Shown: positions 3,964-61,651 of the stretch, piece after piece
Layout of the letters: each line of letters starts with the position of its first letter
How positions within the stretch are numbered: position 1 is the first letter of the stretch
Origin: Escherichia phage DCP548
Strand: one strand, 5' to 3'
Length of the DNA stretch: 64,000 nt
Sequence record: PQ671645.1
The notes under the pieces: model-generated
What the model was told of the DNA's origin: nothing
Seen by the model: only the letters and a program-made list of their open reading frames with translations
Database searches by the model: none
Made by a program: the position numbers and the translations under genes

Positions 3964-4012
3964 CTCCAGTAGTTGATAGGTCTATAATAACACAACTACT
4001 GGAGAAGTAAAC
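3964..4012 (-). promoter_or_regulatory. early promoter with 12-bp inverted repeat, upstream of Arr-like gene
   Basis: Minus GTTTAC, 17 nt, TATTAT; perfect inverted repeat CTCCAGTAGTTG / CAACTACTGGAG flanks the -10. Confidence 0.55.
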
Positions 4013-4387
4013 TTAAAAATGTAATTTAGATACATCTGCGTTGATTTCACTTTGGTTTGCGTCATATGCAATTAAACGAACCGCTTTAGATGGGTCATTC
4101 AATGCATAGAAATGATGGAACATTGCTCGAACGATATCACCATTTACGAGTTCTACCTGGATAGGAGAACCTTTTTCGAGTTGGAAATGTTCATAAGCTT
4201 TGATGGTTCGCAGATAATCAAGTTTTTGATTTCCGGCTCCAACGATTTGTACGATACGTTTGCCCATGTTTTCCATACGAGATACAATAGTTTTAGGAGC
4301 AAGAATAACGTAGGTTGCCAGCGGAGAAACTACTTCAACAGTTGTGTTTTCGGTGATTGCAGTAAAAATTGCTTGAGACATATTCAT
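4013..4387 (-). CDS. hypothetical protein
   Basis: 124-aa minus ORF, ATG at 4387 with GAGAGG RBS; early promoter upstream. Confidence 0.5.
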   Translation of the reverse strand: MNMSQAIFTAITENTTVEVVSPLATYVILAPKTIVSRMENMGKRIVQIVGAGNQKLDYLRTIKAYEHFQLEKGSPIQVELVNGDIVRAMFHHFYALNDPSKAVRLIAYDANQSEINADVSKLHF

Positions 4388-25362: not shown

Positions 25363-25586
25363 TCTAGTTCCTTTGCTGCTTCAAGAGCATCATCCAACGA
25401 ATCAAATTGGTCAACGAAATCGATATTCAACGCATCGTCAGCCGTAGCATATAGCCACCATTGTTTGAATTCATATTCTAGGATAAATCCAAGCCCTTCA
25501 ATCTGAGAAAGACCTAGACTATTTGTACCAACTTCATAACCAGCTAGACGCAGGTCATTAATCAAAGTTTCTGTTAATACGCTCAT
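25359..25586 (-). CDS. hypothetical protein
   Basis: 75-aa acidic minus ORF. Confidence 0.45.
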   Translation of the reverse strand: MSVLTETLINDLRLAGYEVGTNSLGLSQIEGLGFILEYEFKQWWLYATADDALNIDFVDQFDSLDDALEAAKELE

Positions 25587-25915
25587 TTTACCGCCTTAAC
25601 AATTTTCAGGTCAACGAATTTTTTCTTACGTTGATTTTTCATACGACGGATAGTCTTTTCAGAGATTTCATGTTTCTGATAAGCTTTAGATTCAACACCA
25701 AATGCAGCAACGTCAAATTCAGAAAGAATATATTGTACTAGAATTTCACGAATAGAATTACGTCCAATTTTCTGGTCGTGTTTTTGCATAATTTCATAAA
25801 GACGGAATTCCCACGCGTCAAGGACTTGAGGAGTAACAATATTGCCGGATTCCAGAAGAGCAACAACTTTATCGAAAGCGAAAGAATTAACTACGTTTTT
25901 GATTTTAGTAGACAT
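25583..25915 (-). CDS. hypothetical protein
   Basis: Track ORF trimmed to ATG at 25915 (MSTKIKN...) with GAGGA RBS; upstream part overlaps the promoter cassette. Confidence 0.45.
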   Translation of the reverse strand: MSTKIKNVVNSFAFDKVVALLESGNIVTPQVLDAWEFRLYEIMQKHDQKIGRNSIREILVQYILSEFDVAAFGVESKAYQKHEISEKTIRRMKNQRKKKFVDLKIVKAVK

Positions 25916-25930
25916 ATTATTTTCCTCGGT

Positions 25931-25980
25931 TATTTTATTATCCAATGAGAGAATTATACTCTGCTCTCAAGAGTTTATAT
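25931..25980 (-). repeat. promoter cassette copy A (about 46 bp, near-identical to 56637..56684)
   Basis: ttattatccaatgagagaattatactctgctctcaagagttt; contains minus-strand TATAAT. Confidence 0.6.
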
Positions 25981-25981
25981 A

Positions 25982-26221
25982 CTATTTTTTAAGCATGAAA
26001 AGTAAGTAATTTGTATCACGTGGAGTAATATCAACACCCATATCAAAGATGCCTTTATAGATTGGGTATTTATTTTCGGTTGTATCGAAGCTGAAACTAT
26101 TTCCATCACAACTAACAGTAATAGCATCTGTTAAAATGTCATACTCAATCCTAACAATTGAATCCCCAATTTTAACGTCGAGGTGTTTTTTGAATTTGAT
26201 AAAATCTAATTCTTGGGCCAT
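25982..26221 (-). CDS. hypothetical protein
   Basis: 79-aa minus ORF. Confidence 0.45.
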   Translation of the reverse strand: MAQELDFIKFKKHLDVKIGDSIVRIEYDILTDAITVSCDGNSFSFDTTENKYPIYKGIFDMGVDITPRDTNYLLFMLKK

Positions 26222-34450: not shown

Positions 34451-34480
34451 ATTATACTCCAACCATCCTTGGTTGTAAAC
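34451..34480 (-). promoter_or_regulatory. early promoter with palindromic spacer
   Basis: Minus GTTTAC, aaCCAAGGATGGTTGGag, TATAAT. Confidence 0.55.
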
Positions 34481-37061: not shown

Positions 37062-37084
37062 GTTTTACCTCCAGTAGTTGATAG

Positions 37085-37117
37085 GTCTATAATAACATAA
37101 CTATAGACCTTGTAAAC
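37085..37117 (-). promoter_or_regulatory. early promoter with inverted repeat
   Basis: Minus GTTTAC, spacer, TATTAT; inverted repeat GGTCTATA/TATAGACC. Confidence 0.5.
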
Positions 37118-37119
37118 AA

Positions 37120-37407
37120 CTAAAAGAAACTTTTTTCGGTATTTTTTCCACTGAACCAAACAGACTTCGGGATTTTTTGTAATTTTTCAGATTTAAGTTT
37201 CTCTTCCTGTTCTTTCTTATATACACCCTTGTCGTACTGGAGCATCTCTATGGCATTCTTTTGCAAATGATCTAAGGTAATTAAGGCTTTAGTTTTTCCT
37301 TTCAAGGAAGAGTCCTGGCGAACCTCCTCGCTATATTGCATCGTAGAACTAATCATACGATGAGCATAGAGTTCAACTGCGGCTTTAATTTTTTGCATAA
37401 AATCCAT
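37120..37407 (-). CDS. hypothetical protein
   Basis: 95-aa Lys/Glu-rich minus ORF. Confidence 0.4.
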   Translation of the reverse strand: MDFMQKIKAAVELYAHRMISSTMQYSEEVRQDSSLKGKTKALITLDHLQKNAIEMLQYDKGVYKKEQEEKLKSEKLQKIPKSVWFSGKNTEKSFF

Positions 37408-40410: not shown

Positions 40411-40941
40411 TTATTTCAAAGTCGGGATAATAGAATCAAGATAAGCTTTAAGAGCAACTGCTTCATCTTTGTCTAATGTAACGATATGTTGACGAAGGTC
40501 ATCAATTTGACGAATAACTACGACATCACCATCTTCATAAGAAGGATTAACGCCTAGGACTGTTGTATAGTTAGGGCGGTCCTGATTTGTAATAAAAGCA
40601 TTACGGCATTTAGCCCATTGAAGTTTGGCCTTTTTGGCTGTTTCAGATTCCATTAATTCTTTCACCTTAGTGACGAATGTTTTCCAATTATTAATAGAAA
40701 AACATTCGTCTTCAGTTTCGATATTAACCCCACTATAAAGTCCATGATAAAAACGAACTTGAAGGTCTTCGTTAATGTTAATTACAGATGCATGACCCGG
40801 TGGATTGAGTTTCAAAATCTTGTCCAGTTCCATAGGAAGAATAGTAGCAGCATCATCTTCTTGTGTCAGAACATACACATAACCACGTTTTTCAATACAT
40901 AAATCACCAAACAACTCGGTTGTTTCAATTACAGTTTTCAT
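40411..40941 (-). CDS. hypothetical protein
   Basis: Track ORF starts at TTG; trimmed to ATG at 40941 (MKTVIETTEL...). Confidence 0.45.
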   Translation of the reverse strand: MKTVIETTELFGDLCIEKRGYVYVLTQEDDAATILPMELDKILKLNPPGHASVININEDLQVRFYHGLYSGVNIETEDECFSINNWKTFVTKVKELMESETAKKAKLQWAKCRNAFITNQDRPNYTTVLGVNPSYEDGDVVVIRQIDDLRQHIVTLDKDEAVALKAYLDSIIPTLK

Positions 40942-41948: not shown

Positions 41949-42015
41949 AACGTTCTCCTCTAGTAAGTAAGGACTACTATAACACAACCTAAGGAAAAGT
42001 AAACTGATAGATGCC

Positions 42016-42043
42016 AAAAAGCCCCAACCTTTCGGAAGGGGCT
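42016..42043 (-). terminator. rho-independent terminator
   Basis: Minus-strand GC-rich stem (GCCCC...GGGGC) with GAAA loop then UUUUU; downstream of ORF 42050..42352. Confidence 0.6.
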
Positions 42044-45608: not shown

Positions 45609-45657
45609 CTCCTCTAGTTGACAGGTCTATAGTAACACAACTAGAGGAGAAGTAAAC
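45609..45657 (-). promoter_or_regulatory. early promoter with 12-bp inverted repeat, upstream of regB
   Basis: Minus GTTTAC then -10 region; perfect inverted repeat CTCCTCTAGTTG / CAACTAGAGGAG. Confidence 0.55.
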
Positions 45658-45956
45658 TACTCTTTGAAAGGAATTAACTTTTTAACTGCTTTAGATACTT
45701 CGTCACGAACCTGATGGAAGTTCTTGAGCTGTTCAAGGCGTTGTTCGTAATACGCAATCTCATCTTCTTCAAGACAATCGTCAGCGTCTTCTTTCAGATA
45801 TGCCTTGTACTCATTAAAGAGGGCCCATAGGCGGTTCTCAAAGTCATCAAGGCTTTGAATTTTCTTGTGCTTCGGAACAAGGCCAAAAGGATTGCTTTCA
45901 GTTATGCGTCTAGATGATTCATAATGAGTTCCAAAGCCTGATAGGATTTGAGCCAT
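45657..45956 (-). CDS. hypothetical protein
   Basis: 99-aa minus ORF. Confidence 0.45.
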
Positions 45957-47685: not shown

Positions 47686-47821
47686 ATGTTAGGTCCTTCG
47701 ACTCGCTATGTAAACCCATTACCGCATTGCGCTCGACCTTATTACAGGTTGGAAAAGGTACATCACTCAGAGGACTCGACGTTCATAAGGAGAGGTTGCG
47801 TTTCCCTTTATTAGGCAAGAA

Positions 47822-48151
47822 TTATACTCTAGGCTTTTGAGCTTGTTTGGTATTGGATTCCCATGCGGCTTTGGTAATTTTGTTAGCGGCATAACCAAAG
47901 GCATTAGATAGAACACCTTTAGAGTTGAATACATCCAATCCAATAAGTACACCGGCCGCGTTAAATTTAGGAGCAAAGTATGCATTAGTTTTAGAAAGAG
48001 CTTTTTTCAATTCAGGGTCTTGAACCAAACCATCAAAAACGCCTTTACTATTTACTTTATATGTTACTTTGGGATTTTTACCTTCTTCGATAGCAGCTTT
48101 CTGTTCCGCAGATAATGTAACTTCAGTGATAAACTCTTGATACGTTTTCAT
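47822..48151 (-). CDS. internal head protein (capsid-targeted)
   Basis: N-terminal MKTYQEFITE capsid-targeting leader. Confidence 0.7.
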   Translation of the reverse strand: MKTYQEFITEVTLSAEQKAAIEEGKNPKVTYKVNSKGVFDGLVQDPELKKALSKTNAYFAPKFNAAGVLIGLDVFNSKGVLSNAFGYAANKITKAAWESNTKQAQKPRV

Positions 48152-52261: not shown

Positions 52262-52280
52262 AATATTCTCCTCATGTTTA

Positions 52281-52318
52281 ATAGGACTACTATAACATAG
52301 TCCTATCAGTTTGTACAC
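52281..52318 (-). promoter_or_regulatory. early promoter with inverted repeat
   Basis: Minus GTGTAC, spacer, TATAGT; inverted repeat ATAGGACTA/TAGTCCTAT. Confidence 0.5.
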
Positions 52319-52519
52319 TTATTTTGACATTTCTTCGATGTCACGACGATACCCATCACGAACTTCACGAAGAGCTTCAAGGCCACACATAGGCTCGATA
52401 CCAGTAATGTGAACTTGATTAATCTGATACTCTACATCTTCTAACTGAGCGAAAACATAACGACGTTCTGCTTCACAACCAGGTTTAGCTTTACCGAAAC
52501 GTTTATTCAAAGTAGTCAT
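52319..52519 (-). CDS. hypothetical small protein
   Basis: Track ORF starts at GTG; trimmed to ATG at 52519 (MTTLNKRF...) with GGAG RBS. Confidence 0.4.
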   Translation of the reverse strand: MTTLNKRFGKAKPGCEAERRYVFAQLEDVEYQINQVHITGIEPMCGLEALREVRDGYRRDIEEMSK

Positions 52520-53580: not shown

Positions 53581-53832
53581 TTAAATTTCACGACATGCGA
53601 TATTATATTCATCCCAGAGGTCGTCATGTGAAGCCTCTACCAATGGAACGATTGTACCGTTTATGTCTTCATTATAAGGGCAAATTGTACAGTGCGCATC
53701 TTCGAATCGGATGCCTTTGTGTTCAGATTTTTTATAACGCATATCAAATATCTTTGCAAACTTTTCACGAGTAATAGTTTTAGCAACTACTTCGGTTCCG
53801 ATACTTTCGTAATAAATCATTGTAGACTCCAT
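53581..53832 (-). CDS. hypothetical protein
   Basis: 83-aa minus ORF; early promoter upstream. Confidence 0.45.
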   Translation of the reverse strand: MESTMIYYESIGTEVVAKTITREKFAKIFDMRYKKSEHKGIRFEDAHCTICPYNEDINGTIVPLVEASHDDLWDEYNIACREI

Positions 53833-53842
53833 TTAATTTGAT

Positions 53843-53878
53843 AGGGCTACTATAACATAGCCCTATCTTGTTGTAAAC
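53843..53878 (-). promoter_or_regulatory. early promoter with inverted repeat
   Basis: Minus GTTTAC at 53878..53873; inverted repeat ATAGGGCT/AGCCCTAT. Confidence 0.5.
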
Positions 53879-53882
53879 TGTT

Positions 53883-56020: not shown

Positions 56021-56614
56021 TTATTTCAAAGAGTTAATATATTCTTGTACATCAGCAGAAGTGGTTTCGACACCAGCCGGAGTGCCATTGAACGTTTCAA
56101 CACGAGTCAGAGTGTCTTCGATATCAACCTTAGTCAGTGCAGCGATTTCAATTACATCATCAGCCGTAGAGATACCAAGGGCATTGGCTGCTCGAGTTTC
56201 ACGAATGTATTCGAGTTTGATTGCCAGATTCTGACGAGCATCATCAAGTTCAACCACCTTACGAGCAATTTCAATTCGCATAGCGGCATACCCGTCAGCT
56301 TTTGTATTAAGTTGTTCGGCAGTTCGACGATACAGAAGACCAAGCTTAGCATGCATGGTAACATCTTGTCCTTCAGCCAGGAGCTTACGAATTTCACGTT
56401 CCTTAGAAGCGGCTTGCTTGTTCTTTTCATTAACAAGTTCGCGAATACGTTTTTCTTCATTAATAGATTTAACAGAAGCCGTTTTTAGTTCTTTGATTTG
56501 GGTAATCAACTTATCTGCAGCTGCGTTATACTGTTCTTCGACAGTCAGATTTTTAGCCATAGCAGTACCCAGTTTAGTGCGGATGAATTCAACAAGTTTT
56601 TTCAGTGTGTTCAT
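56021..56614 (-). CDS. hypothetical coiled-coil protein
   Basis: Track ORF trimmed to ATG at 56614 ([10 protein letters not shown]...); promoter cassette copy B upstream. Confidence 0.45.
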
Positions 56615-56636
56615 ATTATTACCTTTCAATTGGTGG

Positions 56637-56684
56637 TTTATTATCCAATGAGAGCATTATACTCTGCTCTCAAGAGTTTGTAAA
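56637..56684 (-). repeat. promoter cassette copy B (about 46 bp, near-identical to 25931..25980)
   Basis: ttattatccaatgagagcattatactctgctctcaagagttt; minus ATTTAC, 18 nt, TATAAT. Confidence 0.6.
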
Positions 56685-56912
56685 TTATTTTTTAATCAAA
56701 TTGACATAAAACTCGGCGTCTTCCGGGTGCATGCCTTCACAGTATTCTTCAACCATGAACTTCTTAACAGCTTCATAAGGACCACTCAGATTAAGCTCAG
56801 TTGTCCAGAACTTGGAATCTTGGACTGAATCGATACGAACTTCAGGGTGTCGGTTGCGAATAACTTCTTCGGTGTATTCATAATCAACGACATCAATACT
56901 AACTTTAGCCAT
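56685..56912 (-). CDS. hypothetical protein
   Basis: 75-aa minus ORF. Confidence 0.45.
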   Translation of the reverse strand: MAKVSIDVVDYEYTEEVIRNRHPEVRIDSVQDSKFWTTELNLSGPYEAVKKFMVEEYCEGMHPEDAEFYVNLIKK

Positions 56913-56924
56913 TTTGTTTTCCTC

Positions 56925-56970
56925 TTGATTTGATAGGACTACTATAACATAAACTTACTTAGATGTAAAT
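56925..56970 (-). promoter_or_regulatory. early promoter
   Basis: Minus ATTTAC, 18 nt, TATAGT. Confidence 0.4.
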
Positions 56971-57743: not shown

Positions 57744-57776
57744 ATCTTTATGAAATATTTTTATGCCCTAGATACC

Positions 57777-57803
57777 AAAAAGCCCCAACCGTAAGGAAGG
57801 GGC
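57777..57803 (-). terminator. rho-independent terminator
   Basis: Minus-strand GCCCCUUCC-UUAC-GGUUGGGGC then UUUUU; downstream of internal-protein gene 57810..58274. Confidence 0.6.
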
Positions 57804-58274: not shown

Positions 58275-58320
58275 GTTGCTTTTCCTAAGTTAATTAACTT
58301 ATCTATTTATTATTATGCAA

Positions 58321-58348
58321 AAAAAGCCCCAACCTTTCGGAAGGGGCT
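58321..58348 (-). terminator. rho-independent terminator
   Basis: Minus-strand AGCCCCUUCC-GAAA-GGUUGGGGCU then UUUUU; closes the 58349..58659 non-coding region. Confidence 0.65.
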
Positions 58349-61319: not shown

Positions 61320-61339
61320 TTTATTCTCCATTTACTCAT

Positions 61340-61385
61340 TTGTTTTGATAGGACTACTATAACATAGTCCTATCATCATGTAAAC
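61340..61385 (-). promoter_or_regulatory. early promoter with inverted repeat
   Basis: Minus GTTTAC at 61385..61380; inverted repeat GATAGGACTA/TAGTCCTATC. Confidence 0.5.
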
Positions 61386-61387
61386 TA

Positions 61388-61651
61388 TTAAATACCAGCT
61401 TCGCGTTTAACATAATCGACGTAAGCTTGGATAGCTTTCTTGCTGGTAATTTTTACCTGACCACGACCATTGCCTTCTTTAGAGTTTTTCTTAACAACTA
61501 CATTACCATCTTTAACACCCCATACATGGACGTAAGTACCGATGTTTCGGTCGTAGAACATTGCATGGTCGTTGTTGTAAGAGAATGATTCGTAGTTCTC
61601 TGTCAGAGTAGAAGATTGAGATTCGGCGATAAATTCTTTATAGGTTTTCAT
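61388..61651 (-). CDS. internal head protein (capsid-targeted), ipI-position
   Basis: N-terminal MKTYKEFIAE leader; sits next to 57B where T4 has ipI. Confidence 0.65.
   Translation of the reverse strand: MKTYKEFIAESQSSTLTENYESFSYNNDHAMFYDRNIGTYVHVWGVKDGNVVVKKNSKEGNGRGQVKITSKKAIQAYVDYVKREAGI

Follow-up and report, generated by a model that had tools for sequence, protein, structure and literature searches.

What is a near-identical stretch of non-coding DNA doing at two loci some 30 kb apart in Escherichia phage DCP548 (PQ671645.1), and how long has it been there? The window, by which we mean the whole stretch of 64,000 nucleotides analysed, is that of a Mosigvirus, a T4-like coliphage of the RB69/JS09/ST0 group, and is 96–99.5% identical to many genome records. 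The genes around both copies of the repeat lie on the minus strand, and by RB69 annotation the first copy (A) falls between ORF075c and 55.2 and the second (B) between frd.3 and e.6. We propose, at a probability of about 0.88, that both copies are T4-type early promoters residing in repeated cassettes whose similarity is old and maintained.

Results

An Intergenic Repeat at Two Loci

The initial annotation of this DNA had described a near-identical non-coding repeat at two loci about 30 kb apart, and exact alignment bears this out, as a repeat finder and pairwise alignment give 57 of 62 positions identical (92% over 62 nt) between 25934–25995 and 56637–56698, with the two copies in identical orientation at a spacing of 30,703 bp. 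The coordinates first assigned were about right, although the left end was out of register by 3 nt, 25934 being the partner of 56637, and the right end ~15 nt short, and the "about two" differences counted by eye come to 3 within the span then given. Within a core of 43 nt (25934–25976 and 56637–56679) there is a single difference, A/C at 25952/56655, and the longest exact block common to the copies is 24 nt. When up to 3 mismatches are allowed, this core matches the window at copies A and B alone, and 100 dinucleotide-preserving shuffles yielded 0 matches. The latter result, together with the recurrence of the element in hundreds of phage records, disposes of a chance likeness between two AT-rich intergenic regions, a reading that has only the AT-richness of the genome in its favour. 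A segment at 47818–47854 was considered as a third copy in the window and rejected, having just 13 nt in common (AGAGTATAATTCT); it does not constitute a cassette.

Read on the minus strand, copy A begins at the ..KK-TAG end of its upstream ORF (stop 25984–25982) and copy B at the ..KK-TAA end of its own (stop 56687–56685), while each ends 20–25 nt 5′ of the next ATG (25915–25913 and 56614–56612). The Shine-Dalgarno regions of 55.2 and e.6 differ and lie outside the repeat, and AATAATATG at the start codon is common to both loci. A larger duplicated unit that takes in flanking genes was rejected, as the upstream ORFs are of different families with only a weak 15-aa tail in common (E 0.12) and the downstream genes are unrelated. 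Because the flanking proteins are non-homologous between the two loci, what is repeated is no more than the intergenic cassette.

Table 1. Features of the two loci in window coordinates; the start sites of both copies are predicted from the usual 7-nt distance
Feature	Coordinates	Strand	Remarks
Copy A, 62-nt repeat	25934..25995	-	Intergenic, ORF075c-like ORF to gene 55.2; RB69 orthologue Pe:42515
Copy B, 62-nt repeat	56637..56698	-	Intergenic, Frd3-like ORF to gene e.6; RB69 orthologue Pe:72069
gp55.2 homologue, downstream of copy A	25583..25915	-	110 aa, DUF7570
e.6 homologue, downstream of copy B	56021..56614	-	197 aa, phrog_1203
RB69 ORF075c-like ORF, upstream of copy A	25982..26221	-	79 aa; present, absent or replaced in relatives
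Frd3-family ORF, upstream of copy B	56685..56912	-	75 aa, PF05798; own early promoter 56969-56941
Copy A -35 position, TATATA	25976..25981	-	3/6 to TTGACA
Copy A -10, TATAAT	25953..25958	-	17-nt spacer 25975-25959; predicted start A ~25946
Copy B -35, TTTACA	56679..56684	-	Adjoins TAA stop (56687-56685) of Frd3-like ORF
Copy B -10, TATAAT	56656..56661	-	17-nt spacer 56678-56662; predicted start A ~56649
Copy A inverted repeat, TGAGAGcA..TtCTCTCA	25946..25969	-	One mismatch, C.T (C.U in RNA)
Copy B inverted repeat, TGAGAGCA-gagtataa-TGCTCTCA	56649..56672	-	8-bp stem, 8-nt loop (GAGTATAA) with most of the -10

Layout of the Predicted Promoters

On the minus strand copy B reads AAAAAATAA-TTTACA-(17 nt)-TATAAT-GCTCTC-A, and a consensus scan placed it on the coding strand with a match of 11/12 to the sigma-70 consensus at 17-nt spacing; judged by these features it is presumably a textbook T4-type sigma-70 early promoter and predicted to be strong. 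The layout of spacer, -10, and leader is identical in copy A, and it is the -35 that differs, being degraded there to TATATA; copy A gave no hit in the standard sigma-70 consensus scan. The same -35 reads TATACA, TGTACA, TGCACA, or TTTACA at site A in relatives. With its -35 changed from TATACA to TATATA (C to T) and one pair of the stem considered below mismatched, copy A is probably a weaker promoter than copy B, and it may contribute little transcription. An A-rich, UP-like tract, AAAAAATA, lies 5′ of the -35 in both copies, where it overlaps the end of the upstream ORF; the copies also share a leader of ~13 nt (AUUGGAUAAUAAA), and the predicted start is 33–37 nt from the ATG of 55.2 or e.6 on the minus strand.

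The RB69 genome carries 58 predicted early promoters (Nolan et al. 2006, PMC1524935), and in the published list (Additional file 3) Pe:42515, score 8.9, is the orthologue of A and Pe:72069, score 25.3, that of B, so both were already known in RB69 as predicted early promoters in 2006. The low HMM score is that of the copy A orthologue. Two further entries of that list (PMC1524935), Pe:136687 (26.9) before ORF231c and Pe:165022 (18.2) before ndd, belong to the same family as A and B. RB69 early promoters are A-rich at -40..-44 and prefer C at -3..-1 (PMC1524935), and both copies fit these preferences. The term "promoter cassette" used in the initial annotation is therefore well chosen, given the 11/12 match of B and the presence of the RB69 orthologues of both copies among the published early promoters. 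In the GenBank record of ATK47 the B site is annotated as "similar to consensus host promoter."

A MotA-dependent middle promoter (box (a/t)(a/t)(a/t)TGCTTtA, 11–13 nt, TAnnnT) was rejected at both copies. No TGCTT occurs at copy B, and the TGCTTAA-N11-TAAACT found upstream of the copy A cassette has CAAACT in RB69, the -10-like hexamer not being conserved. The T4 late promoter TATAAATA (-13..-6) is absent from both strands of both intergenic regions. In T4 itself, the e.7/e.6 junction has an early-type promoter, TTTACA-17-TATTAT, of a sequence unrelated to copy B, and the 55.3/55.2 junction, where the genes are 13 nt apart, has no early-type promoter. The leader TTGGATAATAAAAT of copy A (25931–25945) is also found in T4 (40770–40830), inside the 3′ end of gene 55.3 and upstream of 55.2, and because of this presence part of the site A leader may be ancestral local sequence.

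Two sequences near the start codons may have a separate role. The SELEX motif of RB69 RegA is AAUAAUAAUAA (PMC3014915). The minus strand has AAUAAUAUG at 25916–25921 and 56615–56620, that is, AAUAAU directly before the AUG of both downstream genes, and the shared leader has AUAAUAAA, which likewise resembles the RegA motif. Both may be candidate sites for this translational repressor; the RegA-like motif is lacking in family copies C and D.

An Old Family of Predicted Promoter Cassettes

The initial annotation took the repeat to suggest recent duplication or cassette movement. A recent duplication is not supported, nor is the repeat confined to two copies. RB69 has four members of the family, before 55.2, e.6, ndd, and ORF231c, and 281 phage records contain the element at up to 4 places each, most Mosigvirus records at 4. 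In the present phage the counterparts of the ndd and ORF231c copies would lie outside the window. The A–B pair of RB69, with 86% identity over 50 nt, ranks only 6th of 1653 early-promoter pairs, and other far-apart pairs in that genome are 88–90% identical. The window gives the same picture as RB69, with several sub-families of near-identical early promoters. One of these, (G)TTTACAACCAAGGATGGTTGGAGTATAAT, has its -10 at 34456 and 35452 of the window, on the minus strand and ~1 kb apart; in RB69 it comprises Pe:8947, 51019, 52042, and 8387, with further copies ~40 kb away.

A and B are both found at orthologous positions in RB69, ST0, G2469, ATK47, O157 typing phage 3, LF82-4, pEK20, and G2285, as well as in three long metagenomic or IMG/VR contigs. 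Other IMG/VR and metagenome contigs yield further copies, some of them from more distant T4-like phages. The pattern scans of IMG/VR and metagenomes gave only 15 and 12 loci, useful for breakpoints and too few for statistics. A recent duplication or transposition of a non-coding segment in this phage would agree with 92% identity over 62 nt between two sites 30.7 kb apart in identical orientation. It is hard to reconcile, however, with the orthology of both copies in the eight named phages and three long contigs, or in at least 10 Mosigvirus genomes when counted as such, and with the related copies in more distant T4-like phages; moreover, the flanking ORFs are unrelated, and there are neither target-site duplications nor nearby mobile-element genes. 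We regard such an event as very improbable.

Phage SQ17 (MW882907.1, 66500–75500) is without the e.3-e.8/frd.3/e.6 block, and hence without copy B, and has kept copy A; the loss of this block is an example of the plasticity of the region. Throughout the family the 17-nt spacer is near-invariant across the four sites and across genera. This conservation exceeds the needs of sigma-70 recognition, and a promoter reading alone leaves part of it unexplained.

Cassette Borders as Points of Gene Exchange

Comparison of relatives places gene gains and losses at the edges of the cassette. In one contig (L017) an extra promoter with an 83-aa ORF has entered precisely where the Frd3 stop codon meets the B cassette, and the joints of this insertion fall within the -35 (..AAAAAATAA|TGCACAAAC.. 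and ..TAAGTGTACAAACTCTTGAGAGC). Upstream of site A three kinds of neighbour are found, namely an ORF075c-like ORF, an ORF ending ..HYLITK/E, or none, the last seen in G2285, where 55.3 is directly upstream with no intervening ORF; with all three kinds the junction is at the -35. Several contigs have the upstream gene and the cassette in common and differ in the downstream genes.

Two unrelated ORFs of RB69, frd.3 and ndd.1, lie between the same pair of promoter types, the cassette studied here being the one that follows each of them. The promoters upstream of these two ORFs (RB69 72304–72354 and 165233–165283; window 56941–56969) are 90% identical, and the identity takes in the Shine-Dalgarno sequence and first codons (ATGGCTAA). 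To judge from this arrangement, frd.3 and ndd.1 appear as interchangeable ORFs held in a two-cassette frame.

The core itself also varies. At site A it exists in two versions, GAGAGATGAGTATAATTCTCTC and a "B-type" GAGAGCAGAGTATAATGCTCTC, and copy A of the window combines them (CAG...T); as 5 records are 100% identical to this hybrid, it is not a sequencing error. Taken in an evolutionary sense, the earlier proposal that such repeats are substrates for recombination and cassette movement is upheld, both by cassette borders that are points of gene insertion, deletion, and replacement and by the alternative and hybrid core versions at site A. A more specific form of exchange, concerted evolution or gene conversion between A and B themselves, gained no significant support. 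When the A/G state at the predicted start was scored for (site A, site B), 7 genomes were (G,G), while (A,A) and (A,G) accounted for 2 each, a concordance of 9/11 that is not significant in a sample of 11 genomes that are not phylogenetically independent. Deletions between the copies, for which the initial annotation had suggested looking, were not seen in relatives. An A × B deletion would lose ~30 kb, genes 49 and e among it, and from what is known of T4 genetics should not be viable.

An Inverted Repeat around the -10

In both copies an inverted repeat brackets the -10 (Table 1). In copy B the 3′ arm ends at the predicted start, and the fold has an MFE of -15.6 kcal/mol with a z of -2.8 against shuffles. 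The stem of copy A joins a "B-type" 5′ arm to an "A-type" 3′ arm, both known from relatives, and its fold does not surpass that of shuffles (z -0.5). In 19 distinct copies taken together 95.4% of cells pair, as against 89.7% in shuffles, with 0 of 500 reaching the observed value, and compensatory double changes are seen at two pairs (A-U to G-C and C-G to A-U). The feature extends beyond this family, since in RB69 a stem with a score of at least 7 spans the -10 in 26/58 early promoters (~45%) compared with 7.4% of shuffled controls. The paper in which those promoters were predicted leaves near-identical sub-families and inverted repeats around the -10 unmentioned, with "palindrom", "hairpin", and "stem-loop" each appearing 0 times in its text (PMC1524935).

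The transcript that the cassette itself gives rise to is predicted to begin within the 3′ arm, so that the A/B stem could be present only in read-through RNA or in DNA. In an alternative reading the core is primarily a structured RNA, a hairpin UGAGAGCA-loop-UGCUCUCA in polycistronic read-through RNA through which the downstream gene would be affected in its processing, stability, or translational coupling, with the promoter secondary. The compensatory changes and the better-than-shuffled fold of copy B are in its favour, as is the predicted start of the cassette's own transcript within the 3′ arm. The transition mismatches in RB69 promoter stems, with G.T 8 times and A.C once on the sense strand, fit RNA pairing as well, but within the A/B family wobble and A.C events stand at ~3–4 to 2. 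In several RB69 promoters the spacer contains a 5′ arm whose partner is the Shine-Dalgarno region of the gene that follows, which resembles the arrangement of T4 e/soc/49, yet the stem of the A/B family falls short of the Shine-Dalgarno sequence. The mismatched stem of copy A, with a fold indistinguishable from shuffles, also speaks against a primary RNA role, and comparison with Rfam covariance models gave no family match, the two sub-threshold chance hits being at neither element. We rejected a terminator function for the stem, since it is followed by UUGGAUAAUAAA with no U-tract and 0 terminator-like sites lie within ±300 nt of either copy. A small alternative stem, ACTCT/AGAGT in the spacer, was also rejected, all of its positions being invariant and so free of covariation. 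An RNA with a secondary promoter is thus a tentative reading that we consider unlikely, though worth keeping in view, and it would complement the early-promoter reading and not exclude it.

Could the conserved core instead be recognized as DNA? An operator (ACTCT-TGRGAGC-N10-GCTCYCA) for a phage or host DNA-binding protein, with 55.2, e.6, ndd, and ORF231c as its regulon and early shut-off as one possible use, would account for a spacer that is near-invariant across four sites and genera, including the ACTCT outside the stem, and for an inverted repeat centred on the -10; the shut-off of T4 early promoters is itself "not completely understood" (review, PMC3014915). The co-variation of stem positions (A-U to G-C, C-G to A-U) argues for pairing over base-specific protein contacts, however, and the stems of other sub-families differ in sequence at the same place, so that the common denominator is structure and not sequence. 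We found no candidate regulator, and an operator appears improbable to us.

Stems of other sub-families illustrate the range of layouts. In the window, many early promoters, such as those of sub-family D1 (e.g. 53830–53882, 61337–61389, 52270–52322, and 2446–2498; minus strand), have a 10-bp perfect inverted repeat tightly around the -10, GATAGGACTA-tgttatag-TAGTCCTATC, and other promoters have different but self-complementary arms. A second layout (window 3964–4027, 37069–37132, and 45609–45672) has its 5′ arm right after the -35, e.g. TTCTCCTCTAGTTG, and this arm pairs with the downstream Shine-Dalgarno region CAACTAGAGGAGAA; the RB69 counterparts are Pe:7443, 20537, 58138, 61376, and 64934. 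In this second layout the ribosome-binding site would be sequestered only in read-through transcripts, an arrangement that from these pairings is apparently used systematically.

Discussion

The interpretation that we favour is that host sigma-70 RNA polymerase would read both copies on the minus strand in the first minutes of infection, copy A driving 55.2 and copy B driving e.6. Each cassette would present to the polymerase, in order, an A-rich UP-like tract, the -35, the 17-nt spacer, TATAAT, a C-rich stretch at -6..-1, a purine start ~7 nt on, and the leader. A and B would be a sub-family of one promoter "model" in a phage whose promoters fall into several such near-identical sub-families. 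Their similarity would be kept by selection on the promoter sequence and on the 8-bp inverted repeat around the -10, and refreshed through homologous exchange between cassettes. The cassettes would thereby serve as homology patches at which modules of a promoter plus a small ORF are inserted, deleted, and swapped, a modular shuffling of the PeSL type. As for the stem, our best guess is that it folds as an RNA hairpin only when transcription from promoters further upstream reads through the cassette.

A bolder extension of the early-promoter reading is that the stem around the -10 is a dedicated device of about half of the RB69-group early promoters, either a hairpin in RNA by which read-through transcripts would be marked, insulated, or silenced or a DNA structure that presents the -10 single-stranded, and that the four-copy "CTCTTGAGAGCAGAGTATAATGCTCTC" family is a co-regulated set (55.2, e.6, ndd, and ORF231c) read by a specific factor. 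We offer this as speculation that is more probably wrong than right by a wide margin. In its RNA-hairpin form, the expression of each small gene would depend chiefly on that gene's own promoter.

The analysis confirms that early promoters of the RB69 group are a few near-identical "models" scattered over the genome. It also confirms that gains, losses, and exchanges of small accessory genes fall exactly at these short promoter homologies, which is of use in annotating transcription units and in predicting sites of natural or engineered rearrangement, and the -10 stems may bear on how dozens of tiny early genes stay independently expressed.

Comparison with Known Systems

Measured against T4-type early promoters, the two copies have a -35 that is GTTTAC-like in B and marginally so in A, a 17-nt spacer, a TATAAT-like -10, an A-rich upstream tract, and a C-rich -3..-1, and both stand 5′ of an early gene on the strand that is transcribed early. 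The difference is that the -35 of copy A is further degraded here.

The T4-like phages also have PeSL (promoter-early stem-loop) cassettes, described in RB49/phi1, T4/PST, and KVP40/nt-1 (Arbiol 2010, PMC2839356; Comeau 2014, PMC4122927). As in those systems, the module at A and B is a conserved composite intergenic element with a sigma-70-like early promoter at its centre. It recurs many times between genes of the hyperplastic early regions, where it flanks small ORFs, and it coincides with breakpoints at which close relatives differ by indels and replacements of small ORFs; copy B also conforms to the T4/PST consensus TTTACW-N17-TAYWAT. The stem-loop of a PeSL, in contrast, is a terminator just upstream of the promoter, whereas the A/B stem brackets the -10 and has no U-tract, and neither A nor B has a terminator in the PeSL position. 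There is no room for one, because the stop codon abuts the -35. Elsewhere in the window a three-copy family, GCCCCTTCCGAAAGGTTGGGGCTTTTT on the minus strand (plus coordinates 42008–42042, 57769–57803, and 58313–58347), forms G+C-rich hairpins with a T-run, that is, intrinsic terminators. At least one of these GCCCCTTCCGAAAGGTTGGGGCTTTTT terminators is followed directly by an early promoter (41981), a classical PeSL-like terminator-plus-promoter unit.

A second precedent is provided by T4 e, soc, 49, and I-TevI, in which a hairpin sequesters the ribosome-binding site in long transcripts and an internal promoter gives rise to a translatable short transcript. A and B are alike in having the promoter between two stem arms and a stem that would be confined to read-through RNA, and many other early promoters of RB69 and the window resemble these genes further in pairing the spacer with the downstream Shine-Dalgarno sequence. 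At A and B, by contrast, the 3′ arm reaches no further than the predicted start, and because this leaves the Shine-Dalgarno sequence uncovered the T4 e/soc/49 mechanism is not directly applicable to them. Set beside both precedents, repeated promoter modules are an ordinary, already described feature of T4-like phages, and it is the stem around the -10 that is the less ordinary part.
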